A program made the position numbers and the translations under genes. The notes under the pieces were generated by a model. It made no database searches, was not told the origin of the DNA, and was given only the letters and a program-made list of their open reading frames with translations. This document shows positions 23,164 through 40,321 of a DNA stretch of 64,000 nt, piece by piece. Numbering within the stretch: the first letter of the stretch is position 1; each line of letters begins with the position of its first letter. This stretch comes from Escherichia coli (lineage in GTDB: Bacteria; Pseudomonadota; Gammaproteobacteria; Enterobacterales; Enterobacteriaceae), in NCBI RefSeq assembly GCF_003018235.1, contig NZ_CP027437.1, one strand, 5' to 3'.

Positions 23164-24168
23164 CTATATGGACAGATTATGGACGCTTTCAGCCAGTGGA
23201 TTAAAGCTTATAGCATCCTGTAAAAAATCCGGTGCAAAATGCGCATATGTCATTGTTTGCTGGATAGTTGAATGTCCAAGAATCCGTTGAAGTGTTACTA
23301 TATTTCCTCCATTCATCATAAAGTGTGTTGCAAACGTATGCCGCATAACATGAGTTGCCTGTCCTTTGGGCAGATCTGGTTTTACTTCCTTTAGTGCTCG
23401 TCGAAAGTTTGTGTAATTAACATTAAACAATGCACCAGATTGTTTTATCTTGATGAGCTTTATAACTTCTTCGGATATAGGTATGGCGCGGGGTTTATTG
23501 GTTTTTGTCTGATTAAACATAACTCTGTTTCCCACAATATTTTCTCCCCGTAGTTTTGTTGCCTCTCCCCACCTTGCTCCTGTCGAAAGACACAGAATCG
23601 CTATTCGTTTGTTATCTCCAGTAAGATGATTGAGCAAGCGATCAATCTCTTCGTTTGATAAAAACGACATATCTGATGGTACAATCCTCAACTTCCTCAG
23701 ACCATGTAGCGGATTTGCATGGTGGAATTCTTCAGCATTAATCAGCACTGAAAACATGGCTGAAAGTACGCAGAGATCCCTGTTTACCGTGTTGGGTGTC
23801 AGTCCTGCACTGAGTTTGTTTGCACGATAACTCAGAAGGAACTTTCTGGTTACACCGTTGGCTCTGGGATCTCCCATTTCTCTGATCACTTTATTCAGCC
23901 TTTGCAGGTATGTCTCACCATAAGGCTGATTTTGCCCGTCGAGCATCCACCACATTTCGGCAAGTTCGGAAAGATGGCGTTTGTCTGCGGGTTTTTCCAG
24001 CCATGGTTTGTTATGCATGTTCTGAAGAACATATTTTTCATAATCCTGCGCTTTCGACTTCAGGGTGAAAATTTTTCGAATCCGCTTCCCTTCCGCACCC
24101 TGAGGTCTGACATCAACCTGATAACGTCCGTCTTTGAGCTGCTTAATCGACATGATTAGCACCTCCAA
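23164..24168 (-). CDS. int: Tyrosine-recombinase integrase, P2-family-like
   Basis: C-terminal catalytic region ...ATHVMRHTFATHFMMNGGNIVTLQRILGHSTIQQTMTYAHFAP...; ILCLSTGARWGEA and TKTNKPR motifs as I recall in P2 Int; true start may be the Met at 24153. Confidence 0.9.
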   Translation of the reverse strand: MEVLIMSIKQLKDGRYQVDVRPQGAEGKRIRKIFTLKSKAQDYEKYVLQNMHNKPWLEKPADKRHLSELAEMWWMLDGQNQPYGETYLQRLNKVIREMGDPRANGVTRKFLLSYRANKLSAGLTPNTVNRDLCVLSAMFSVLINAEEFHHANPLHGLRKLRIVPSDMSFLSNEEIDRLLNHLTGDNKRIAILCLSTGARWGEATKLRGENIVGNRVMFNQTKTNKPRAIPISEEVIKLIKIKQSGALFNVNYTNFRRALKEVKPDLPKGQATHVMRHTFATHFMMNGGNIVTLQRILGHSTIQQTMTYAHFAPDFLQDAISFNPLAESVHNLSI

Positions 24169-24243: not shown

Positions 24244-24567
24244 TTATTGGTGTGATTTTGAGTTTGTTGTAGTTGAATCCTGAGCGGCCTCCGATTCTCC
24301 AGAGCCATCAAGAGAGAGAGCCGGGGCGATCTGCCCGGCCTGAGGGAAGGTTTTGCCGTGCAGGAGCCACATTGTGTATTTTTCGAACAGTGAGCACTGT
24401 AATACACGGAGGGCGATATCTGCCCGGGCAGGTTGATGTCCTGTTTCATAACTCTTAACAGAACCAAGAGCTATACCTGTTATCTCGCTAAACTTTTGCT
24501 GGGTTATTTTTTCAGCACGTCTGATCGCTCGTAGTTTTTGAGCAAAATCCATTGACAAGGTATTCAT
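24244..24567 (-). CDS. Immunity repressor, P2 C-like (HTH)
   Basis: HTH FSEITGIALGSVKSYETG; C-terminal KYTMWLLHGK..GQIAPAL resembles P2 C (KYTLWFMTN..GQIAPAL) from memory; same strand as int. Confidence 0.7.
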   Translation of the reverse strand: MNTLSMDFAQKLRAIRRAEKITQQKFSEITGIALGSVKSYETGHQPARADIALRVLQCSLFEKYTMWLLHGKTFPQAGQIAPALSLDGSGESEAAQDSTTTNSKSHQ

Positions 24568-24668
24568 ATAACGACTATCCTTCTTTTGGTTGTTGATTAA
24601 CGACGTTTGCAATAGCTGACTATAGTCGACAGTAGCCAGCAAACGCACCAACGATGGAGGATAACAAA
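24568..24668. promoter_or_regulatory. Divergent promoter/operator region between repressor and cox-like gene
   Basis: 100-bp intergenic region with perfect palindrome GACTATAGTC (24618-24627) and a GACTAT half-site at 24573-24578. Confidence 0.4.
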
Positions 24669-25127
24669 ATGCAGGAAACTATTGCAGAGGGGGGGATATT
24701 CAACGCTGGTGGGGATGACACGCAGTTACAGGAAAAGGAAGTCAGAAATAAATTATCACTGAGACTTGATGGACCTGTAGCGGATTTAGTTTTTCTGGAT
24801 AAAGGAGCAGCATACGTTGGGCTGACCAGGAAAGCGCTTGCAACAGCTTTACGTAGAGGCGAAATGCCTGGACATAAGAAAAGAAAAAATCCTGAAGATG
24901 AAACATCGCGTGGAGTGTGGATTTTTAACGTCAAGGCATGGAATGAACTTGCTGATATTTTGCCTGAAATTGAGCCACCAGAATGGCATCACTGGAAAGA
25001 TTACTGGTTATACAACCGAAACACTCGGAAATTTCAAAAGATTGATAAACAAGATTGTACACAGATTAATGGTAAACGTGTTTACAGGCCGCGTCAGAGC
25101 AGACTGGAAAAAGCACGTCAGTCATGA
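24669..25127 (+). CDS. Hypothetical DNA-binding protein in cox/apl position (possible excisionase or lytic-switch regulator)
   Basis: GGAGG SD 9 nt upstream; segment LVFLDKGAAYVGLTRKALATALRRGEMP resembles excisionase/AlpA-type HTH; divergent from repressor. Confidence 0.35.
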   Translation: MQETIAEGGIFNAGGDDTQLQEKEVRNKLSLRLDGPVADLVFLDKGAAYVGLTRKALATALRRGEMPGHKKRKNPEDETSRGVWIFNVKAWNELADILPEIEPPEWHHWKDYWLYNRNTRKFQKIDKQDCTQINGKRVYRPRQSRLEKARQS

Positions 25128-25485: not shown

Positions 25486-26281
25486 ACACAGGAAAGTTAT
25501 GGGCTTGTGTGATTCAGAAAGTGTGAGGTTACGTGCAAAATGGCCAGACATGTAAAAAAGAACTTGAATGCAGTGTCGGCATGGTGGTATTTTTCATCTG
25601 CTGCCACAGTGCTGGCAGTCGGGAATACCACCCCGTATGTGTCAACGGCGACATCAGACGCCGCAAGCGTCTTTTTTGTTGTCGTAACCTTATACGCCAT
25701 GAAGCTCCATTTTATGGTGCGGTGTTATCCATTAAGAGCCGTTGCAAGCGCCTCTACCGGAAGGGGCTGGATAACATCCACCACCATGTCAATGGTAGCT
25801 CAGGCGGGGCCGACTTCGGTCGGGCCGGTTTCCGTTGGCACCGGTAGTGGTATCCCCGTCTGGGCTATCGCCAGTGAGCATACCACCTCCTGCGATAGCA
25901 GTATGTTATGTCAACGGAGGCTGCCTGAATGGCTACAATCCCAACCCAAAAGCGCCCAAAATCCGCGCTCCCCCAGCTCAGCAGTGACTGTCGTCGCCGG
26001 ATACACCGTGTGCAGATGGTTACGCTCCATTATTACATTCAGTGTCTCGCTGATAATCCGTGTTCAGTTGATTTTTGTTTTCCGTACTTATTGTCTTACA
26101 TCCACGATGATATTAAGGCTATAGATAATGAGTTAATTTCTCTTGGCCTGTTTGAACAGGCGATGGGAAAGAAAAAACGACGATAGTTTTCATCGTTATT
26201 AATTAACGTTGTCAGGAAGTATTAAACACACCGCTCACGCGGCGGGAATCTTACATCTTAAATATCTGACGAGGTGGAAAC

Positions 26282-26437
26282 ATGAAGCTGTTTTCATTAC
26301 GTAAAAATAAAAAAACGGAAAAAAAGAAACGCACTTATCCGGCAAATAATAACGTCCGTCTGTTACGTTATTACCAGAAATTACAGGAATTAAGTTGTGA
26401 ACCGGATAAAAAGTTCAGCCTGGATGTGTGGATGTAA
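26282..26437 (+). CDS. Hypothetical small basic protein (51 aa)
   Basis: Strong SD GAGGTGG 6 nt upstream; immediately precedes the exonuclease gene; preceded by the conserved 19-nt motif at 26228-26246. Confidence 0.3.
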   Translation: MKLFSLRKNKKTEKKKRTYPANNNVRLLRYYQKLQELSCEPDKKFSLDVWM

Positions 26438-26448
26438 TGGGGGAATAA

Positions 26449-27024
26449 ATGAACGATCTGATGATTGATACTGAAACAACAGGAACATCCCATCATTCAG
26501 GGATTATTTCCTTTGCCGCAGCATTTTTTAATCCAGATACCGGAGATAAAGGTGACCACATTTATCTTCGCCTGGACTGGGTGAGTGCGACACGTAATGG
26601 CGCAGTGATTGATCCGGAGACATTCTGTTTCTGGTTAGAGCAATCGACAGAAGTAAGAATGGAAGCCGTCAGGAAAGACGAAAGTATTTCTGAACGTGAC
26701 GCCACATATGCGCTGATTAATTTTATTGAGCAGCGTGCTGATATCAGACGGGTGCGTGTCTGGGCGAAGTCACCCACGTTTGACTGCTCACTTCTTCGTG
26801 ACATGTGTGATCGGAGTATTGGGTCAAATACCAGCGTAGAAATGTTGTGGCCGTTCTGGAATGAGAGAGATGTCAGGACTGTTGAAGGGCTTGCCGCGCA
26901 TCTTGGCATTCCGTTGCCTTACTCCAGAAAGGAAGTCACTCATCATGCTCTTAATGACGTTATGGGGCAGATAAAAAATGTGGCTACCGTATTTGCAGCA
27001 CTGCGTGGCGTGATGGAGGTGTGA
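26449..27024 (+). CDS. DEDDh-type 3'-5' exonuclease (DnaQ-like)
   Basis: Exo I motif MIDTETTGT at N-terminus; later acidic/His residues (HHALNDV) consistent with Exo III. Confidence 0.65.
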   Translation: MNDLMIDTETTGTSHHSGIISFAAAFFNPDTGDKGDHIYLRLDWVSATRNGAVIDPETFCFWLEQSTEVRMEAVRKDESISERDATYALINFIEQRADIRRVRVWAKSPTFDCSLLRDMCDRSIGSNTSVEMLWPFWNERDVRTVEGLAAHLGIPLPYSRKEVTHHALNDVMGQIKNVATVFAALRGVMEV

Positions 27025-27025
27025 T

Positions 27026-27244
27026 GTGAATAAAGCACAACGTAATGCTGCAGCGGCAGCGAATCGTCACAGGGTCTCGCCGGAACAGGTGCTCATCTGG
27101 TGTGAGCAACTGAAACGCATTGTGGACACAGCAAACCAGAATACGCGGCACAACGAAAAGAGCAGGGCGCTTGAGCCGATTATTGCGTGGATTGAGCAGC
27201 AGAAGAAACAGGCAATGGAAGAAATCAGAAAACGGGGTGAATGA
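27026..27244 (+). CDS. Hypothetical protein (72 aa)
   Basis: GTG start with GGAGGTG SD overlapping exonuclease stop; translationally coupled to the next gene (ATGA overlap). Confidence 0.4.
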   Translation: MNKAQRNAAAAANRHRVSPEQVLIWCEQLKRIVDTANQNTRHNEKSRALEPIIAWIEQQKKQAMEEIRKRGE

Positions 27245-29283
27245 AAATGGCAGAAGAAAAGAATCAGGAATATGCATATGTATTTCCGGTAAAAAACGAA
27301 GCCGCCAGAAAACGCCTGGGTTTTGCGCATGGCTTTTACTGGAAGAGTGATTGCTCACAGGCGAGAGTGTTGCTTCGGGCGAATGTTGCCATGCTGGATG
27401 CGGGTTTTGAACCGGAGGATTTCAAAAAGCCTGTACGTGTTAATTTCCCGGTGGTGAACGAACTCCCAGCGGAAGGTGTTTTTGATACGGAATTTTGCCA
27501 CCTGTATGTACCGGGCGGTGAAGACGGCAAGACGATGGTGTATATCGACGCTGTAAAACAGGAGGCAGACAAGGAAAAAAACAACGTAGCCAGTAACACC
27601 AACGTCAACGGCGAAGATATGACTGAGATTGAGGAGAGCATGCTTCTGCCGATTTCCGCTCAGGAGTTGCCAGTTCGCTGGCTGGCGCAACACGGGAAGG
27701 AGAACCCCGTTACTCACGTTTCCAGAGACGAACTTCAGGCTTTACATGTTGCACGGGCGGAAGAATTACCGGCAGTTACTGCACTGGCGGTTTCCCACAA
27801 AACAGGCCTGCTCGACCCGCTGGAGATCCGCGACCTTCACAAACTGGTGCGTGATACTGACAAAGTTTTCCCTCATCCTGGCAATTCAGACCTGGGGCTC
27901 TTGACTGCTTTTTTTGAAGCATACCTGAATGCTGACTACACCGATCGCGGTCTGCTGACAAAAGAATGGTGCAAAGGAAATCACATATCCCGCCTGGAAC
28001 GTAAAAAAATACAACCAGAGAGCGCAGAACCGCTACGTGCAACCAGGGAAAGACCGCGGCGTAGTGAAAAACCAACCTTCAGAACGATTAATTATGAAAT
28101 CGCCTGTGCTTTATGCCCGGGTGCGGACTGTCATGATTTACGTCCGGTGGTGAATTCAGCGAAGAAACTGATGGCTGACGGGGATGAAAGATGGCGGGCA
28201 TGGTCGACATCTCTTGGCATTACTGAAGGGATTAAAAACTGGGACAGAAAAACGATTTTTGACATGGTCAGTCAGGCTCCGTCACATGTCACAACGGGGT
28301 CAGCAGAGGCGCGCAGGGAGTGGATTGAAAACTTTCTGATTGCACGTGGTGTGCGTGATCCGGAGTGGGCTGAGCCGCTTGTATGCGTTTCCGTACCGGA
28401 ACATGAAGATAATCTGGAAAGAGTTCGCGGTGCAGGAAAACGTCTGCGGAAGCTTGAGAATAGTGATTGCACATTTCAGGCAGACAACGGTTCTGGGGAG
28501 GCTGAGGTGGTTGAAGCGGACGAAAGCAAAGCAACGTCATCTGCTGAAATTCAGGATGCCGATAAATTACTGGCCGCTTACCGTGGTGAATATGTTGAAG
28601 GGATTAGCGACCCGAATGATCCGAAGTGGGTGAAGGGGATCCAGAGACGCGATGATGAGGACCAGGATCAGGCTGAAGCGGAACAAGACGACCAACACGT
28701 GGAACGGAACAGCCCAGATGCGAGACAAAACGAGCCTGATACGGAACAGAATGAGCAAGGAGCACTGCAGGGACCGGAAAAAGTCTGCGACACCTGCGGA
28801 CAGGACGGAGGTGGAAAATGTCCGGATTGCGGTTCTGTCATGGGGGATAGCACATACAGTGCCGTTTATGGCGGGGATCGAGAGGAGTCAGCGTATGTGG
28901 CAGAGCATGGTGCTTTGAATAATCAGAGCAAAGTTACAGTTGGCGAGGTCATGGAGATCATGAAAGCGGTTAAGCCAGCCGTTCATGTTGATGCTGAAGG
29001 GGAAACGGAAGAGATAAACGGTGATCAACTATCACTGCAGACTGAAAATAAGGATGACCGGTCATCACGGAAAGCGTCAGAAGATGTGCCCATGTTTATC
29101 AGTGAGACCGTTCTCCATAAGGAGGATGGTGAGGCAAATATGAATATCTGTGAGTTGGTGAACATGTTGCATCAGCAACAGGAAATGCTGAAAGAAATCC
29201 GCTCAACTCAGGCCCGCTTTATGGGCGCGATTGTAGCCATGCTTTCGGTTATTTCAGGGGGAGAGCAGGTAGGACATGAGTAA
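27241..29283 (+). CDS. Hypothetical 680-aa protein with acidic tract and CxxC-x9-CxxC zinc ribbon
   Basis: Long ORF with balanced composition; CDTCGQDGGGKCPDCGS motif; D/E/Q-rich segment; no NTPase motif seen. Confidence 0.6.
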   Translation: MKMAEEKNQEYAYVFPVKNEAARKRLGFAHGFYWKSDCSQARVLLRANVAMLDAGFEPEDFKKPVRVNFPVVNELPAEGVFDTEFCHLYVPGGEDGKTMVYIDAVKQEADKEKNNVASNTNVNGEDMTEIEESMLLPISAQELPVRWLAQHGKENPVTHVSRDELQALHVARAEELPAVTALAVSHKTGLLDPLEIRDLHKLVRDTDKVFPHPGNSDLGLLTAFFEAYLNADYTDRGLLTKEWCKGNHISRLERKKIQPESAEPLRATRERPRRSEKPTFRTINYEIACALCPGADCHDLRPVVNSAKKLMADGDERWRAWSTSLGITEGIKNWDRKTIFDMVSQAPSHVTTGSAEARREWIENFLIARGVRDPEWAEPLVCVSVPEHEDNLERVRGAGKRLRKLENSDCTFQADNGSGEAEVVEADESKATSSAEIQDADKLLAAYRGEYVEGISDPNDPKWVKGIQRRDDEDQDQAEAEQDDQHVERNSPDARQNEPDTEQNEQGALQGPEKVCDTCGQDGGGKCPDCGSVMGDSTYSAVYGGDREESAYVAEHGALNNQSKVTVGEVMEIMKAVKPAVHVDAEGETEEINGDQLSLQTENKDDRSSRKASEDVPMFISETVLHKEDGEANMNICELVNMLHQQQEMLKEIRSTQARFMGAIVAMLSVISGGEQVGHE

Positions 29284-29497
29284 GTTAAGTGATGAAGCGT
29301 GTGATGTTTTTGAATGTCTGCTGGCATCAGAACGGAATACAGCACGGGGTGTGGCAAAAGAGTTACAGATATCTCCGGCAACTGCGGTTGAAATACTGAA
29401 ACGGCTGGAGGAAGAAGGGCTGGTAACACAACTGAATGGCTTCTGGTCTGTGCAGGAAAAGAAAAGCAACGGGAGTAAAAATGGAAAACATAGTTGA
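29276..29497 (+). CDS. Small winged-helix-like protein (paralog 1)
   Basis: TARGVAKELQISPATAVEILKRLEEEGLV pattern shared with 29481, 30300 and 37514 ORFs. Confidence 0.5.
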   Translation: MSKLSDEACDVFECLLASERNTARGVAKELQISPATAVEILKRLEEEGLVTQLNGFWSVQEKKSNGSKNGKHS

Positions 29498-30284
29498 TGC
29501 CCTGAAAGCGATGGGTAAAGCCACGTCAGTGGAACTGGCTGCGCGTCTCCAGATCAGCCGTGAGGAAGTACTGAATGAACTCTGGGAATTGCGGCGCAGT
29601 GGTGTTGTGGATCAAAACTTACAGGTCTGGACACTGGCCAGCGATGGTGCGCAACGGGAACAAAAAACGCCTGCTGCGGTGTATCAGCGTGATAACAAGG
29701 AGGAGCGTAAATTACGTGAGGTCGTCAGTCGCCAGGAGCGAGCGCCACTGAATCGCAGTGATATTCTGTCCGCGTTTGCTCATTGTGAGGAAATGACCAC
29801 CGCGGAGATAGCAACAGCAGTGGGGCGCGCTGATAGTGTCAGGTCGTTGGTTTCCGCAATGGAAAAACTTTGTCGTACTGGTCTGGTAATCAAAATGGGG
29901 CAGGGTAAGGGGTGTAAGTGGAAACTGGTAAAAAAATCCGGTGAAAATTTACCAACAGTGCCAGAAACAGAGCCGGTAGCGCTGTCCGGTGGTAAATCTG
30001 AGTCTGCCGCTGTGGTGGTCGATTTGCCACAGCAGAAAACGCAGACCAAAACCAAACAAGAGACTGTGACGGACATTGTGCAGTCGCTGCCATCGTTTAC
30101 CGCAACGCGGTATGATGACCTGATTTTACCATCGCTGCATATGGCAAACCGCGAACTGCGTCGGGCGAAAAGTCATGTCCAGAAGTGGGAGCGAGTCTGC
30201 GCCGCGCTGCGGGAGCTGAACAAGCACCGGGATATTGTTCGACAGATTACTGATTCTTCCCGCCGGGTTGCATCGGAAAAGTGA
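29481..30284 (+). CDS. Tandem winged-helix-like protein (paralogs 2a/2b)
   Basis: Two internal copies of the same ~50-aa pattern (ATSVELAARLQISREEVLNELWELRRSGVV and MTTAEIATAVGRADSVRSLVSAMEKLCRTGLV); GGGAG SD. Confidence 0.5.
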   Translation: MENIVDALKAMGKATSVELAARLQISREEVLNELWELRRSGVVDQNLQVWTLASDGAQREQKTPAAVYQRDNKEERKLREVVSRQERAPLNRSDILSAFAHCEEMTTAEIATAVGRADSVRSLVSAMEKLCRTGLVIKMGQGKGCKWKLVKKSGENLPTVPETEPVALSGGKSESAAVVVDLPQQKTQTKTKQETVTDIVQSLPSFTATRYDDLILPSLHMANRELRRAKSHVQKWERVCAALRELNKHRDIVRQITDSSRRVASEK

Positions 30285-30299
30285 TTGCCGGAGGCGCTT

Positions 30300-30722
30300 A
30301 TGGCAAAAGTATTTACACAAGAAGAGCGGGAAAAAATTAAAGGGCAGGTTGTTGAGCTAGTACGCCGGAGTGGGCGCGAGACGTTACGGCAACTGGAAGC
30401 CAAGACAGGTGTGACAAGATATCTGATGAGCGTTCTCGCCAGAGAGCTGGTTGCCAGTGGCGATGTATACAACTCTGGTTACGGGTTATTCCCCTCTGAA
30501 CAGGCTCGTAAGGACTGGCAAAACGCCCGTAAAAAACTATCTAGGGCAAAGGTAAAAAAAACGGTTGTGGTTGATCCTGACCTTATCTGGTCATTACCTG
30601 ATGGAGAAATACGCCGCTACGACAGGAGCCTGAATATAATCTGTCGCGAGTGCCGGAAGAGCGAAGCTATGCAGCGTGTACCGGCTTTCTATCAGGGCAA
30701 TTTTCAGGAGGCGGTACTGTGA
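30300..30722 (+). CDS. Winged-helix-like protein (paralog 3)
   Basis: VVELVRRSGRETLRQLEAKTGVTRYLMSVLARELVASGDV; GGAGG SD. Confidence 0.5.
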   Translation: MAKVFTQEEREKIKGQVVELVRRSGRETLRQLEAKTGVTRYLMSVLARELVASGDVYNSGYGLFPSEQARKDWQNARKKLSRAKVKKTVVVDPDLIWSLPDGEIRRYDRSLNIICRECRKSEAMQRVPAFYQGNFQEAVL

Positions 30723-30779
30723 GTGAAATTAGCTATCAGGCTTCAATTACCGCTGGCATTCGCATCAAAGGAGAGGAGC

Positions 30780-31136
30780 ATGGAAATAAAACCAGAAGAT
30801 GAGTTAAGCAATATCGTTTTATTCCCGGTAAAAGAGGATGACCCTCGTAATCGGGTTAATTTTCTTTATGAGCCATCGGAAAGACCATATTGCCATCACG
30901 CTTCTGTCCGGGTTGACGAAAAAGAGCGTCAGGTCCGCTGTAAAATCTGCGGCGCAGTTGTGGAGCCATTTGACTGGATGCTCTCTGTGGCGAAAAGAGA
31001 AACCAGACTGGCAGATGATGTAAGGCTCTTGCGCCAGGAGGAACGGGAAAGGCGAAAAAATATAGAAAAGCTAATTCAGATTGAGCGTAACGCGAAAGCG
31101 CGGATACGCAGGGTGACAAAATACAGAACTGAATAA
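30780..31136 (+). CDS. Hypothetical protein with Cys/His cluster
   Basis: AGGAGAGGAG SD; YCHHASVRVDEKERQVRCKICG; basic C-terminus. Confidence 0.45.
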   Translation: MEIKPEDELSNIVLFPVKEDDPRNRVNFLYEPSERPYCHHASVRVDEKERQVRCKICGAVVEPFDWMLSVAKRETRLADDVRLLRQEERERRKNIEKLIQIERNAKARIRRVTKYRTE

Positions 31137-31187
31137 TTAAATTCAGCACTGCAAATAAAAATTAAATCCTTAACTTGAGGTATATCT

Positions 31188-31400
31188 ATGTTAAATACAC
31201 AGAAAACAATTAACGCGGAAAAATATAACGAGTGGGTGAGAAAATTCTCTGAGCAGATTTTTAAAATTACTGGCGACGAGAATGTGGCAAAAAATGAATT
31301 AGAGCCGTGGACACCTGAAGGAACCGACCCAAATTATTGTTGGTGGGAGGTTGATCCGGTTGATGCTGCAAATGAAGCCATGAGTTACTACAACGATTAA
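31188..31400 (+). CDS. Hypothetical protein (70 aa)
   Basis: ORF with upstream GAGG; no recognisable motif. Confidence 0.35.
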   Translation: MLNTQKTINAEKYNEWVRKFSEQIFKITGDENVAKNELEPWTPEGTDPNYCWWEVDPVDAANEAMSYYND

Positions 31401-31435
31401 TGCCGGAAGACTACCCGAAAGAGAGGTAATGAAAA

Positions 31436-32065
31436 ATGGCTGAATTAACCAAAGAATGGCTAAAAAACATGATTACCGGAATTGAGTCGGTAATAGACGA
31501 TAAATCGTTTGTATGTGATGAAATAGTATTCAAAATAGGTGAGGTTAAAAACATACTTACCGCATTTAAAGTCGCGCTGGCATCGCTGGAAGCAGAGCCG
31601 GTGGCTGAGATTAGAGCGCACTACCCATTAGGGATTAACGGCGGTAAACAAAAGTTCGTCCAGGCCATTGGAGATCTTCCTGACTTTGGCGGACATCTGT
31701 ACGCCGCTCCGCCAGCGCCTGTAGTGCCGGATGAGGGGCGCGACAAGTTTGAAGCAATTATCAGGTTTCATGTCGGTGATGAAAACCATGAAACATTATT
31801 GCTGCGGGCCAACGAAGGGATGAATTACCGGGACCCAAATGTTGATTTTGCATGGATATTCTGGAAGTCCAGTCGTGAGCATCTGCTTCGGAATAATGAC
31901 GGCAGTCTGCCAGAATCGGGTCATCAGGTACGCGGATTAACACTGCTGGTTAAGCGACTGGCCAGTTCATTAAAAAGCGTCAATAAATCCAGCAAGCTGC
32001 CTGATAAGGCGCTGGAGTATCTGAAGCAGAACGGACTGATAAGCGTGGAGGATATTTTACGATGA
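31436..32065 (+). CDS. Hypothetical protein (209 aa)
   Basis: ORF with SD AGAGAGG; no recognisable motif. Confidence 0.45.
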   Translation: MAELTKEWLKNMITGIESVIDDKSFVCDEIVFKIGEVKNILTAFKVALASLEAEPVAEIRAHYPLGINGGKQKFVQAIGDLPDFGGHLYAAPPAPVVPDEGRDKFEAIIRFHVGDENHETLLLRANEGMNYRDPNVDFAWIFWKSSREHLLRNNDGSLPESGHQVRGLTLLVKRLASSLKSVNKSSKLPDKALEYLKQNGLISVEDILR

Positions 32066-32149
32066 CCTGGCCTGAAGCATTCACCACGGCAGGAATTGCG
32101 ATGGCGGTGGCACTGGTTGTGTATTCTATTTGTCGTTGGGGGTAAACAC

Positions 32150-32401
32150 ATGTTCTCTCTGATTCAGCGTGGTCAGCGGTATGTTGATGCAGCTGGTTAT
32201 CCTGTGGAGATTTGTTTTTGTTCTGCTGAGAAAGTGGTGTATCGCCGCCAGGACAATCAGACCCGTTCTGCAAGTATTGTTGACTTTAATCAGAATTTTG
32301 AACGTCTGGATTATCACGAATATATACGGATTAAATCAGATATGGAGCAGACAGAACATCTGCGGAAATTAAGACGATTACACAAAAGAGGTGGGGAATA
32401 A
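32150..32401 (+). CDS. Hypothetical protein (83 aa)
   Basis: Internal ATG with GGGGG SD; MFSLIQRGQRYVDAAGYPVEICF... Confidence 0.35.
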   Translation: MFSLIQRGQRYVDAAGYPVEICFCSAEKVVYRRQDNQTRSASIVDFNQNFERLDYHEYIRIKSDMEQTEHLRKLRRLHKRGGE

Positions 32402-32894
32402 CCACGGATAAAGAGAACTAAATTTCGTCAGAATTAACAGGAAATAACTGGAACGAAAAATACACCGCTTACGCGGCGGGGTTTCTGCAACCTTAAAACA
32501 GGGTAAGAGAAATGGCAGAGATGATGAACAATAAACTCTTCATAACCAGTCTCTTTAAGTTGACTGGCCGGGAGTAACGACCAGTGGCAATACAAAAAAA
32601 CCGCTTGCCAGCGTTTGTCTGGTCGGGTTACATTTCCCGTGCACCTCATAAAACGGGTGCCGGGATTCTCAACCCGCAGAAGAACAGAGCGCATAACCGC
32701 GCCAGCGGTTTTTTTATGCGTGCCGTATCGTCACACCTTTTTCGCACACGAATTATGGCGGGGCGTACGGGGCCGACTTCGGTCGGGCCGGATCCTCTGT
32801 TCTCCGGTGTTGAGAACCCCGTACGTCTCGCCACCCCGAGATTCTCAACTCTGGATGGTGAGTTATGTCTATCACTGAACAGAGGTTACCCCTT

Positions 32895-33125
32895 ATGGCA
32901 AACCGTAAACAACAGCGCGCCCGCACTGAGCGTCGTCACATCCAGACCGAAATCAACCGCAGACTGTACCGGGCTATCACTGTCGCCAGAGTCATGTACT
33001 TCAATATGCTGTGTGATCAGGGATGCCAGATTGCACCTGATTACATTGCCTCCACGTTCAGTTACCTGGCAGACGATCTGCGGGATATGCAACGCCTGGT
33101 TAACGATCAGGCGCATAACCTGTAA
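32895..33125 (+). CDS. Hypothetical small basic protein immediately upstream of repA
   Basis: MANRKQQRARTERRHIQTEINRRLY...; alternative start at 32865. Confidence 0.35.
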   Translation: MANRKQQRARTERRHIQTEINRRLYRAITVARVMYFNMLCDQGCQIAPDYIASTFSYLADDLRDMQRLVNDQAHNL

Positions 33126-33203
33126 CGCACTTTTTCCTGAAATCATGAAACGGCACTCCGCTATCTGGCGGGGTGTCTGGCTGCCCGTTATCCGGGAGGA
33201 CAT

Positions 33204-35126
33204 ATGACCGTGTATTCAGCGGGAGGTCCGCGCATGCCTGAGCCGGAAGAAGAACAGGCATTCACTGAAGAGGTGAACAGCGCCTTTTCCGGGCTGCCTC
33301 GTTTTGTGTCTGTAAAGCTGGGGCGCAGGATCAGCAGCGCATGGCAGACAAAGGGTTTTGCCGGTGCACGGGAAAAATTTGCGCTGATGGTTCAGAAGGA
33401 TTTGCCGTTCATTACCGGGGTGAATAAACGTTATGCCATTAATCCGGATGAATTACCGGGGTGGCTGTTTGGTGGGCTGGCATCTGATCAGGCATACGGT
33501 GCGGTTCATTCCATGACCTGGCGATTTAATGCCATGGTGGATGGTGACGACGGGGATGCGCATTTACTGGCTCAGGATCTGTCCGTGTTTCTTATTGCTG
33601 AAATGCAGCACCTGAGTGTTCTTCTTGCGGATGAAGATGCGGATGCGGCGGCAGATGCCATTTATGCCATGGTTGCCGGGCTTGTTGAGCATTTCCGGAT
33701 GGAGCCACCGGACTGGAAGCGTTTTATTGGCAGAAAGCTGACACTGGAGCAACTGACTGTTGCCATCAGCCGGATGCTGAGTGTTCGCTGGTGGCAGGGA
33801 AAACTCAGGGCATTCTCCCGTCGCTGGCGTGAACATCTGCTTATAGCTATGGGTGTCGTTCGTCGGCAGTCTTCACCGCACTGCAGTTATGAATGGGTGC
33901 AGAGGTGGCTGGCGGGGCGTAAGCACGGTCGAAGGCTGATGGCGGAAACGGACGTTGAGGATGAAGAAACAGGAGAAAGATTTTCACTTCTCGATTTGGT
34001 TGACAGCAGCATTTCAGATGCGGAGAAACGCCGCGCAGAGCTGATGACCAGGGTTAAGGGGCTGGAAGATTTAGCCCGTTTTGAAGGTGTGGCGCAGGAG
34101 CAGGGGTATATCGGGCTTTTTTTCACGATGACCGCGCCATCAAAATATCATGCCTGGCTGGAGACAGGATATCGCAATCGTCGTTATAACGGCGCAAGCC
34201 CGAAAGACACACAAAATTATTTCTCCGGACTCTGGCGTCAGATCAGTGCAACGCTGAGGCGCAGGGGGATCGGGATTTTTGGATTAAGAAGTGCCGAACC
34301 GCATCATGACGGAACGCCGCACTGGCATGGTGTTCTCTATGTGCATCAGGAGCATGCTGCCGCCTTACAGGACATTCTTGAGTATTACGCCAACCGCGAT
34401 GATGACGCGGGAAAAACGCCCATCCGCAAAGCAGGAAGAAAATCCCACCTGGAAATAAAACCGGTTCTTGATGATCTGGGGAGTGCCTCTGCCTATATCG
34501 CCAAGCATATTGGAATGAATCTTGACGGTTGTGCGCCAGGCGGAATGAATCATGAAACGGGCCATACACTGGTGGTCACTGCCCGCCACGCCTCGGCGTG
34601 GGCGTCATTATGGGGGATCAAGCAGTTTCAGTTTATAGGCAGCACACCGGTAAGTGTATGGCGTGAGCTGCGTCGCTTTAACAATCAGGCTCATGCTGAC
34701 CGGATAAGCCCGGCGCTGGGTGAGTTACACCGTGCAGCCAGTGAGGGTGACTGGAAAACCTATACCAGGCTGCAGGGTGGACCGTTTGTGGCACGAAGAG
34801 ATCTGGTCCTTCGCACATGGTATCAGCGTTCGGAGGAGCCGGATGAGTGTGGGCTACACACCAGTGCGATCAAAGGTGTTTATATGCCGGGGCGTGATAC
34901 GCCACCGGTAGTGACGCGTTCACGTAACTGGAGGATCACCCGGAACGTTACAACAGGCGCTCTCAATGTTAACCGGGGGTCTGCTTTAACGCCCTGGACT
35001 TGTGTCAATAACTGCATTTCGGGCAGAAAACGACCAGATGGTCATCCTCCGGATCCAGGTATAAGGATCCCTGTTCAACTGGAACTGAACTTCGGGGAAG
35101 AGAATAAAGGGAAAAGTGAGCAGTAA
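33204..35126 (+). CDS. Rolling-circle replication initiation endonuclease (HUH family; P2 gpA-like)
   Basis: GGGAGGA SD; HUH-type motif GTPHWHGVLYV; 640 aa in the position of gene A relative to int-C-cox. Confidence 0.75.
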   Translation: MTVYSAGGPRMPEPEEEQAFTEEVNSAFSGLPRFVSVKLGRRISSAWQTKGFAGAREKFALMVQKDLPFITGVNKRYAINPDELPGWLFGGLASDQAYGAVHSMTWRFNAMVDGDDGDAHLLAQDLSVFLIAEMQHLSVLLADEDADAAADAIYAMVAGLVEHFRMEPPDWKRFIGRKLTLEQLTVAISRMLSVRWWQGKLRAFSRRWREHLLIAMGVVRRQSSPHCSYEWVQRWLAGRKHGRRLMAETDVEDEETGERFSLLDLVDSSISDAEKRRAELMTRVKGLEDLARFEGVAQEQGYIGLFFTMTAPSKYHAWLETGYRNRRYNGASPKDTQNYFSGLWRQISATLRRRGIGIFGLRSAEPHHDGTPHWHGVLYVHQEHAAALQDILEYYANRDDDAGKTPIRKAGRKSHLEIKPVLDDLGSASAYIAKHIGMNLDGCAPGGMNHETGHTLVVTARHASAWASLWGIKQFQFIGSTPVSVWRELRRFNNQAHADRISPALGELHRAASEGDWKTYTRLQGGPFVARRDLVLRTWYQRSEEPDECGLHTSAIKGVYMPGRDTPPVVTRSRNWRITRNVTTGALNVNRGSALTPWTCVNNCISGRKRPDGHPPDPGIRIPVQLELNFGEENKGKSEQ

Positions 35127-39457: not shown

Positions 39458-39534
39458 GCGCCGTTAGCTCAGCTGGACAGAGCAATTGCCTTCTAAGCAA
39501 TCGGTCACTGGTTCGAATCCAGTATGGCGCACCA
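39458..39534 (+). tRNA. tRNA-Arg (anticodon UCU)
   Basis: Manual cloverleaf: acceptor GCGCCGT/ATGGCGC, D-arm GCTC..GAGC, anticodon loop CTTCTAA, T-arm ACTGG-TTCGAAT-CCAGT, CCA end. Confidence 0.85.
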
Positions 39535-39535
39535 T

Positions 39536-39610
39536 GCGGTCATCGTATAATGGCTATTACCTCGGCCTTCCAGGCTGATGATGCGGGTTCGATTCCAGCT
39601 GGCCGCTCCA
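39536..39610 (+). tRNA. tRNA-Gly (anticodon UCC)
   Basis: Manual cloverleaf: acceptor GCGGTCA/TGGCCGC, anticodon loop CTTCCAG, T-loop TTCGATT, CCA end; close to glyT tRNA as I recall it. Confidence 0.8.
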
Positions 39611-39768: not shown

Positions 39769-40321
39769 TATTTTTAGTATTTAGCCAGAGTGGCCCAAAC
39801 AGAAAATAAAGTTACTGTGAAACAGGGGGGCCTAATAAAAATAATCACCACTAAATTCGGGGCTTTAAAAATGCTAAGAACATCACATTTCATTATGCCG
39901 GGTACTGGAGAATAACATGATGTTTTGTTAAAAATGATTTTGCATGGTGAATCCCCCTGTGCGGCGGGGCATAATGACAGATGTTTGGTTGCGTATTGTA
40001 TAGGCAAGTTGCGGATTCTGTCTGGTCATTGCAGAATTCACCGGGAGGCACCCGGCACCATGCAGATAATTGTTTTGTGGATGATAATACCAGCCCCTCT
40101 CCGGAGGGGCTTTCTTATGGGCGAAAAAAAGCCCGGGGAGCCGGGCAATAGCATGAGATATACGTTTTTATAGACGTACAGATTTTAATCAGAATTTATG
40201 GGGCTGCGCAACTGCGTGGCCTTTTTTGTTTTGTGGGCTAAGGTTTTCCCCTTTGATTCGCCATGTGGCTGAACCTGTAGCCCGCCACTGTTCAGACGCA
40301 ATCCCGGCAAGGGGAGGAATA

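Follow-up and report, generated by a model that had tools for sequence, protein, structure and literature searches.

The question raised by this locus is what an exact repeat of 24 nucleotides is doing twice in one prophage. In the 64,000-nt stretch of the Escherichia coli chromosome analysed here (contig NZ_CP027437.1; hereafter the window), the GC-rich 24-mer CGGGGCCGACTTCGGTCGGGCCGG occurs exactly twice, at 25805-25828 and 32768-32791. Both copies lie on the + strand without a mismatch, in direct orientation and 6963 bp apart, and no third copy was found in the window with up to three mismatches. None of 100 dinucleotide-preserving shuffles contained a match, and by chance none would be expected. 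An earlier note, made from the sequence alone, had reported these two copies, described a CCGAC/GTCGG stem that carries a TTCG loop and lacks a T-run, and proposed a functional RNA or a protein-binding site; the motif search and the read-out of the sequence agreed with both descriptions. We conclude that the two 24-mers are very probably the conserved structural core of two paralogous C4/CI-type antisense immunity RNA genes, which are located in the leaders of + strand operons.

Both copies match the C4 antisense RNA family

An Rfam scan, one of the checks proposed in the earlier note, gave clear matches to RF01695 (C4 antisense RNA) at both loci over the full length of the covariance model (positions 1-87 of 87). 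The scores were 74.2 bits at 25788-25875 and 77.0 bits at 32751-32838, against a gathering score of 45, and the CI RNA of phage P4, defined by experiment, scored 74.9 bits on the same model when P4 was scanned in the same way. For the isrK family (RF01394; gathering score 50), a match of 65.4 bits was obtained upstream of copy B at 32641-32715, and a full-length match of 49.0 bits (E = 2.6e-9) upstream of copy A at 25600-25677. The corresponding seqA region of P4 gave 60.8 bits for isrK and 44.1 bits for c4-a1b1. Each 24-mer is thus part of a module, A or B, that consists of a promoter-like site, an IsrK-like leader with a terminator, the C4/CI RNA, the downstream targets b2 and a2, and a gene of the Derepression family (Table 1).

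In a four-way alignment, module A, the P4 immunity region, module B and the homologous region of phage P88 were collinear from the promoter region to the next start codon. The 88-nt RNA of module A was identical to P4 CI at 70 of 88 positions and that of module B to its P88 counterpart at 74 of 88, while the two RNAs of the window shared 52 of 88. The flanks of the 24-mer, which had been taken as otherwise unrelated, are therefore homologous; the two modules align over ~300 nt, from promoter to start codon.

The makeup of the 24-mer accounts for its exact repetition. It is made up of the UUCG hairpin 1, preceded by the 5' half of helix 2 (CGGGG) and followed by that of helix 4 (GCCGG). The earlier note had also suggested looking for it in other phages, and it was present in P88 and in 33 of the 120 viral-contig hits to a degenerate pattern, which makes it the commonest core allele (the remaining stem allele being CCGA/TCGG); in this homologue set, the search pattern had already fixed 14 of its 24 positions. 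Module A of E. coli strain ES5 departs from the 24-mer by one change. Since conserved helix halves are combined with the commonest hairpin allele, the identity of the two copies reflects conservation of the family and no special relation between the two sites. In addition, the copies do not bracket the intervening cargo block, as had been supposed. Both elements point in the same direction and each heads its own + strand gene block, and they are therefore operon leaders, not insert boundaries.

The RNA fold and its covariation

Folding of both loci, likewise proposed earlier, yielded the same three-way structure for the two 88-nt RNAs, at -46.4 kcal/mol (z = -4.4) for copy A and -49.8 kcal/mol (z = -4.2) for copy B. 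The structure consists of a long outer stem, the UUCG hairpin, a second hairpin whose large loop holds the recognition segment a', and then an unpaired segment, b'. The minimum-energy and centroid folds both gave the C4 family structure for both copies. For copy B, a larger inverted repeat had been drawn in which CGTACGGGG (32764-32772) pairs with CCCCGTACG (32817-32825), together with a second hairpin, CCGGA...TCCGG, at 32788-32807. Both were recovered on read-out, and the multi-stem fold as drawn corresponds in essence to the real C4/CI fold. In each copy, the outer stem is followed by CCA (GCCAGU and GCCACC).

For the covariation analysis, homologues were drawn from viral contigs with the pattern CGGGGNNNNCTTCGGNNNNGCCGG, and 58 distinct sequences were aligned. 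The pattern and the regular expression CGGGG....CTTCGG....GCCGG missed real members that deviate slightly from them and that Rfam found, namely both ES5 modules and the third module of strain SCU-111 (see below). The homologue set is thus biased to UUCG-core variants, and helices 2 and 4 are invariant partly by construction. Standard pairs occupied 96.0% of the cells of the family structure, compared with 84.3% in column shuffles and 31-52% when the partners were slid by one to three columns. Thirteen pairs were changed on both sides, and 12 of these were located in helices 1 and 3, which the selection pattern left unconstrained. Helix 1 often contained G-U pairs, and a G-U pair closed helix 4 in all 58 homologues. 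Because G-U pairs are possible only in the + strand RNA, their frequency and the compensatory changes point to a + strand RNA rather than a DNA site. Of the two functions first proposed for the 24-mer, a functional structured RNA was thus upheld and a protein-binding DNA site was not.

A simple intrinsic terminator at the 24-mer was considered and rejected, as it had been in the earlier note: the hairpin lacks a T-run and lies inside a larger covarying fold, and the real terminators sit in the upstream IsrK-like leaders.

Recognition segments and targets

The recognition sequences are UUUCCGUUGGCA (a') and AGUGGUAU (b') in copy A, and AUCCUCUGUUCU (a') and GUUGAGAA (b') in copy B. In each copy, a' and b' are complementary to four sites on their own transcript, b1 and a1 upstream and b2 and a2 downstream. 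The segments differ between the copies, and the four targets of each copy have changed to match. Uninterrupted Watson-Crick complementarity at the four sites was 6, 7, 7 and 7 nt in module A and 9, 8, 8 and 9 nt in module B, and longer when G-U pairs were allowed, whereas the loops matched the targets of the other module over only 4-5 nt. The predicted duplex energies were -16.2 kcal/mol (a'/a2) and -8.9 kcal/mol (b'/b2) for module A, and -15.3 and -9.9 kcal/mol, respectively, for module B. The Shine-Dalgarno sequence of the following gene lies within a2 in each module.

The same agreement was found beyond the window. Among 47 distinct a'/b' combinations from the viral contigs, the summed complementarity to an element's own targets averaged 29.4 nt, compared with 19.1 ± 2.0 nt when the loops of other elements were used. 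In the four-way alignment, the loops and all four targets of P4 and P88 differed again, yet matched each other. Such matching of loop and target follows the logic of the classical heteroimmunity between P1 and P7 and between P4 and its relatives. With a' and b' distinct in copies A and B, and the targets of each altered accordingly, the two switches appear largely orthogonal (heteroimmune). The b sites of the two modules are unrelated.

The modules of strain ES5 (3489-3576 and 10331-10418 of its locus), which belong to a ~83%-identical prophage at the same pheL site, differ from those of the window by half-swaps: module A of ES5 has kept b' and carries a new a', and its module B has kept a' and carries a new b'. 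The 47 combinations from the viral contigs are made up of 41 a' and 21 b' alleles. These half-swaps, with which the allele counts agree, indicate that the two halves of the specificity evolve or reassort independently.

Proposed mode of action

What was observed in the window comprises the family membership, the fold, the terminators, the identity of the downstream genes, the position of a2 over the ribosome-binding site, and the four targets per module, which covary with the loops. The steps that would connect them are modelled on the better-studied phages P1/P7, P4, N15 and Gifsy-1. RNase P makes the 5' end of the C4/CI RNA in P1 and P4. By analogy with these two phages, the C4/CI RNA would be cut out of the leader transcript and would then act in trans or in cis. 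Pairing with b2 and a2 would block ribosome binding at the epsilon-like gene, and the block of translation would in turn lead to premature Rho-dependent termination before the downstream genes, that is, before the exonuclease and RecE block in module A and before the replication gene in module B. Pairing with a1 and b1 in the nascent leader would favor a stop at the terminator of the leader. Since it carries a1 and b1 itself, the short IsrK-like RNA that ends there might serve as a decoy that titrates the C4 loops and relieves repression, an activity demonstrated for IsrK of Gifsy-1 (PMC4825925). In the lysogen, the epsilon-like anti-repressors and the replication functions would thereby be kept off. 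That the epsilon-like proteins antagonise the P2-type C repressor of the prophage itself is plausible; if they do, the modules would form a secondary "anti-immunity" system like immI of P1.

In folds of the whole leaders, the a1/b1 region of leader B paired in cis with a'/b', and a' of leader A paired in cis with a2. These modelled folds are compatible with alternative pairings of the C4 loops with the leader or with the targets.

Several points weigh against this reading. The putative promoter of module A is an 8-of-12 match to the consensus, below the threshold of the promoter scanner, at a position homologous to the promoter-like site of module B in the alignments, and the score of leader A (49.0 bits) is just below the threshold of its family. 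The orthogonality of the switches is incomplete on paper: a' of copy B (32792-32803) partly pairs with a2 of module A (25909-25920), with eight pairs, one of them G-U, at -10.9 kcal/mol compared with -16.2 kcal/mol for the cognate pairing, so that one-way cross-talk may occur at this site. For this strain, transcription, processing, dependence on RNase P, the translational block and Rho-dependent polarity are all proposed by analogy. The function of the epsilon-like proteins would follow from a weak similarity to P4 epsilon, at E = 6e-6 for protein A and without significance for protein B. Finally, the published model of Gifsy-1 stresses activation by IsrK over repression by the C4-like RNA.

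Alternative explanations

This Gifsy-1 model is the strongest competitor. In it, the C4-like segment is mainly a cis-inhibitory fold in the read-through mRNA, and the trans-acting RNA that matters is the short terminated IsrK-like transcript, which opens the ribosome-binding site by pairing with the C4 loops; the unit would then serve chiefly to activate expression on induction and less as an immunity repressor. The read-through transcript of its own locus is a trans target of IsrK in Gifsy-1, and a processed RNA of ~80 nt, STnc1160, arises downstream (Hershko-Shalev et al. 2016, PMC4825925). In the same study, IsrK trans-activated the translation of orf45-anrP, and mutations in the complementary segments of IsrK and orf45 behaved as predicted (PMC4825925). 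The cis pairing of the a1/b1 region with a'/b' in the full fold of leader B would fit this model, and the strong terminators of both leaders would yield short IsrK-like RNAs. The model requires the same pairings as repression, so the two are not exclusive. However, genetic work on P1, P7, P4 and N15 has defined the processed C4/CI RNA as the immunity factor (PMC3632133, PMC4825925), and the conserved b2/a2 sites over the Shine-Dalgarno sequence are most directly explained by repression. A switch that is chiefly an activator is thus possible, if somewhat doubtful, in this prophage.

Two further explanations would dispense with an antisense RNA. Two identical 24-mers in direct orientation, 6963 bp apart, with accessory genes between them that vary among relatives, could be DNA-level sites for recombination or protein binding at the ends of a 7-kb mobile cargo cassette, and recombination between repeated a2/start-codon segments does seem to have brought an extra module into SCU-111. 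However, the identity ends at the 24-mer, that is, at family-wide helix halves with the commonest hairpin allele, and the G-U pairs and compensatory changes reveal selection on the structure of a + strand RNA. Each copy comes with a promoter-like site, a leader, targets and a downstream gene of its own, and P88 carries a B-type module alone, in the same place before its replication gene and with no partner copy. Among the relatives, none was seen that lacked exactly the segment between the 24-mers and retained a single hybrid copy at the junction. We therefore consider a DNA-site cassette highly improbable. A protein-coding origin of the conservation has in its favor that long open reading frames (ORFs) span both modules (25540-26124, 194 aa; 32584-33207, 207 aa), that the 194-aa ORF weakly matches Pfam PF10554 (Phage_ASH), and that PGAP places "Icd-like" or "ash family protein" over the homologues. 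Yet the stretches that match PF10554 coincide with the span of the IsrK-like and C4 RNAs in the window, in SCU-111 and in the obsolete "cI protein" ORF of P4. The lengths of the a' loops (9 to 15 nt) change by steps that are not multiples of three, and the substitutions are paired and compensatory. Searches against NCBIfam gave nothing useful for the small ORFs and no match for the long module-spanning ones. Such coding genes are hardly credible as the cause of the conservation, and the preferred explanation remains a pair of C4/CI-type antisense RNA genes.

Comparison with known systems

The C4 family has been described since 1990, when c4 of P1 and P7 was reported, and members are also known from P4, N15 and Gifsy-1. 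It comprises c4 of P1/P7, CI of P4, CA of N15 and STnc1160 of Gifsy-1, and Barquist et al. had already noted the IsrK-C4 system in lambdoid prophages (PMC3632133). As its scaffolds are also common in E. coli genomes, the novelty that the earlier note implied for the repeat was not sustained. Both copies are a well-described phage riboregulator, found here by a routine Rfam scan, and the discovery value is small; novelty is confined to the particular specificity alleles and to the unusual arrangement of two largely orthogonal modules (three in SCU-111) within a single P2-like/lambdoid hybrid prophage.

Among the closest known systems is that of P4 (seqA - cI/seqB - seqC, the "IsrK-C4 immunity system"), which has the same order of promoter, leader with terminator, processed RNA and targets, and in which a small ORF, the derepression (epsilon) gene and a replication gene follow the seqC-like targets. 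Of the 88 bases of RNA A, 70 recur in P4 CI, the outer stems being identical, and the ORF downstream of module A starts MATIPTQ, compared with MATTLTP in P4. In contrast, a', b' and all four targets differ, so the immunity specificity differs too. Hairpin 1 is CCGAC-UUCG-GUCGG here and CAGCC-UCCG-GGCUG in P4, and the epsilon-like gene directly follows the targets here, whereas kil and eta intervene in P4. Moreover, P4 is a satellite, whereas the prophage of the window is of full size, with capsid and tail genes and two modules.

The c4 RNA of the immI operon (c4-icd-ant) of P1/P7 belongs to the same Rfam family (RF01695) and has the same fold as both copies. Its a' and b' segments base-pair with a2 and b2, which cover the ribosome-binding region of the gene that follows, and copies of a1/b1 are located upstream; it controls an anti-repressor function, and heteroimmunity results from a few base changes in a'/b'. 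It differs in that icd and ant lie downstream instead of epsilon-like genes, and in that the primary repressor of P1 is C1 instead of the P2-type C/Cox found here. The isrK-orf45-anrP locus of Gifsy-1 in Salmonella (IsrK/STnc1160) also has an IsrK leader with a terminator, a C4-like processed RNA, an anti-repressor gene and a short leader RNA complementary to the C4-like segment. Its downstream gene encodes AnrP rather than an epsilon-like protein, and Hfq binding and trans-activation by the leader are known only for Gifsy-1 (PMC4825925).

Module B resembles the C4 module of P88 and other Xuanwuvirus (P2-like) phages, with 84.8% identity over 243 nt, the same 24-mer, the same int-C-cox context and the same position before the derepression and replication genes. 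P88 differs in a'/b' and the targets, in having a single module, and in its type of replication protein and its late genes. The CA RNA of N15 (immA) matched module B by blastn at 70.8% over ~200 nt, on the feature "cA: secondary immunity repressor", and is more distant. In N15, CA reportedly controls icd/antA/antB.

Layout of the modules and the surrounding prophage

Table 1. Positions in the window of the parts of modules A and B and of neighboring prophage features
Feature	Position	Strand	Sequence or evidence
P2-like integrase	23164-24168	-	
P2-type C repressor (ORF 24244-24651, - strand) and Cox	24244-25127		
Putative sigma-70 promoter A	25564-25593	+	TTGAAT, 18-nt spacer, TATTTT; ends 6 nt before leader
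IsrK-like leader A (= P4 seqA + terminator t1)	25600-25677	+	RF01394, 49.0 bits; fold z = -3.0
b1 of module A	25625-25631	+	ATACCAC; in leader
a1 of module A	25640-25648	+	TGTCAACGG; in leader
Predicted intrinsic terminator of leader A	stem 25656-25672, then T-run	+	Terminator prediction
C4/CI-type antisense RNA gene A	25788-25875	+	RF01695, 74.2 bits; holds 24-mer 25805-25828
Recognition loop a' of copy A	25829-25840	+	TTTCCGTTGGCA
Recognition segment b' of copy A	25846-25853	+	AGTGGTAT
Downstream target region A (= P4 seqC)	25880-25920	+	Complementarity to a'/b'
b2 of module A	25880-25886	+	ATACCAC
a2 of module A	25909-25920	+	TGTCAACGGAGG; contains Shine-Dalgarno GGAGG, 8 nt before ATG at 25929
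Gene A, small epsilon-like protein, 85 aa	25929-26186	+	Pfam PF25738 (Derepression), E = 4.1e-8
Promoter-like site B	32605-32634	+	TTGCCA, 18-nt spacer, TACATT; 9/12 consensus match; ends 6 nt before leader
IsrK-like leader B	32641-32715	+	RF01394, 65.4 bits vs 50
b1 of module B	32666-32673	+	TTCTCAAC; in leader
a1 of module B	32681-32689	+	AGAACAGAG; in leader
Predicted intrinsic terminator of leader B	32695-32710, then T-run	+	Terminator prediction
C4/CI-type antisense RNA gene B	32751-32838	+	RF01695, 77.0 bits; holds 24-mer 32768-32791
a' of copy B	32792-32803	+	ATCCTCTGTTCT
b' of copy B	32809-32816	+	GTTGAGAA
Downstream target region B	32842-32885	+	Complementarity to a'/b'
b2 of module B	32842-32849	+	TTCTCAAC
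a2 of module B	32877-32885	+	GAACAGAGG; contains Shine-Dalgarno AGAGG, 9 nt before ATG at 32895
Gene B, small epsilon-like protein, 76 aa	32895-33125	+	Pfam PF25738 (Derepression), E = 7.8e-4 (weak)
P2 gpA-like replication endonuclease	33204-35126	+	phrog_91 "nicking at origin of replication", E = 1.8e-173; PGAP "replication endonuclease" in SCU-111
Phage tRNA-Arg(TCT) and tRNA-Gly(TCC)	39458-39610		
sRNA STnc100	39912-40122		

The window is part of the E. coli chromosome, with tmRNA, the pheA leader and aroF-tyrA-pheA, and the prophage is integrated next to pheL. Its genes follow the order integrase, C/Cox, module A, a + strand block, module B, epsilon-like gene B, the gpA-like gene, the Q antiterminator gene, tRNAs, STnc100 and lambdoid late genes. 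The + strand block between the modules, which gene A opens and which extends to ~32401, contains the epsilon-like gene and genes for a 3'-5' exonuclease, RecE, and DUF1627, Ea22-like and DUF4222 proteins. The prophage (window 23164-64000) is a mosaic, with P2/P88-like integrase, C, Cox and gpA-type replication genes alongside Rac/lambda-like recE, exonuclease and Ea22 genes.

The products of the two epsilon-like genes are 25% identical to each other. Protein A was similar to P4 epsilon, and its orthologue in ES5 is annotated by PGAP as "derepression protein"; a comparison of protein B with P4 epsilon gave no significant similarity. The true start of gene B is probably the ATG at 32895, and the longer ORF start at 32865 is probably wrong, because phrog_3688 matches from residue 11 of the long ORF and PGAP annotates the relatives accordingly, with a "derepression protein" of 231 nt at this position in SCU-111, ES5 and P88. 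As the next gene downstream, the replication endonuclease is presumably under the control of module B.

A second short repeat, ACACCGCTYACGCGGCGGG, was found on the + strand at 26228-26246 and 32462-32480, with 0.04 copies expected by chance. It forms a CCGC-TYAC-GCGG hairpin without a T-run; one copy lies ~40 nt past the stop codon of epsilon-like gene A, and the other ~60 nt past the DUF4222 gene, upstream of module B. SCU-111 has the repeat as well, and two viral contigs (L096 and L116) carry it downstream of their A-type C4 genes.

Distribution and possible significance of multiple switches

Among 5426 complete E. coli genomes, A-type scaffolds were found in 2213, including many plasmids, and B-type scaffolds (≥80% of the query covered) in 1212. 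The exact A and B alleles occurred in only two genomes, those of SCU-111 and of an O158:H23 strain, both of which carry the same prophage. A P4-like satellite with the same A specificity was sought in the same 5426 genomes and not found, and because the exact A allele is confined to the two genomes with the same prophage, there is no evidence for cross-immunity with a satellite.

The near-identical prophage of SCU-111 (locus L001) carries an extra complete module of IsrK-like and C4 RNAs (64 and 74.4 bits) with its own a'/b' segments and targets, so that it has three modules in total. The stretches concerned are 6301-6378, 6489-6576, 6747-6826 and 6845-6935 of this locus. The extra module stands in tandem, after module A and ahead of the epsilon-like gene, with a duplicated a2/start-codon segment flanking it; from this tandem insertion, modules appear to move as cassettes by recombination.

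In the loci from viral contigs (L003-L123), the first gene after a2 belonged to one of a few classes: epsilon-like proteins of the B type (MANRKQ...), proteins of 64 aa that resemble the P4 ORF after seqC (MATTLTPSHPQF...) and are presumably kil/Icd-like, A-type epsilon-like proteins, and ~208-aa proteins starting MATVPTP.... Since the class of this gene varies, the same RNA switch gates different cargo genes.

The paired changes of loop and target provide a ready-made set of largely orthogonal natural RNA switches, and a prophage with two or three switches and different epsilon-like genes is convenient for studying an RNA-based secondary immunity layered on a P2-type repressor. Two switches (three in SCU-111) that gate divergent epsilon-like anti-repressors might be more than redundancy, although we consider this unlikely. 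They could form a multi-key anti-immunity circuit, in which one paralogue would act on the prophage's own P2-type C repressor and the other on the repressors of co-resident P2-like phages. Alternatively, module A, which is built on the P4 CI scaffold, could have been captured from a P4-like satellite and serve in defence or counter-defence in phage-satellite conflict, a role on which Barquist et al. speculated for lambdoid prophages (PMC3632133). If either option held, the independent reassortment of a' and b' would reflect an arms race in which RNA specificity is at stake.

Protein annotations over the RNA genes

In E. coli genomes, the C4 scaffolds are mostly unannotated or hidden under "ash family" or "Icd-like" coding sequences (CDSs), and PGAP "Icd-like" CDSs cover most of the A-type homologues. 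The residues assigned to the PF10554 "Ash protein family" map to the RNA span in the window (25540-26124, + strand), in the "ash" CDS of SCU-111 (6630-6989 of locus L001) and in P4 (8168-8584 of locus L002, - strand). This coincidence suggests that PF10554, "ash family" and "Icd-like" entries are translations of the IsrK-like and C4 RNA genes, and recognising these RNA genes corrects the gene maps of E. coli in RefSeq. In P88, a GenBank "hypothetical protein" is annotated over the IsrK-like and C4 RNA genes (5033-5221 of locus L003, - strand). Its equivalent in the window, a 62-aa ORF at 32646-32834 on the - strand, had no family match, and the P88 annotation is thus probably a spurious call.

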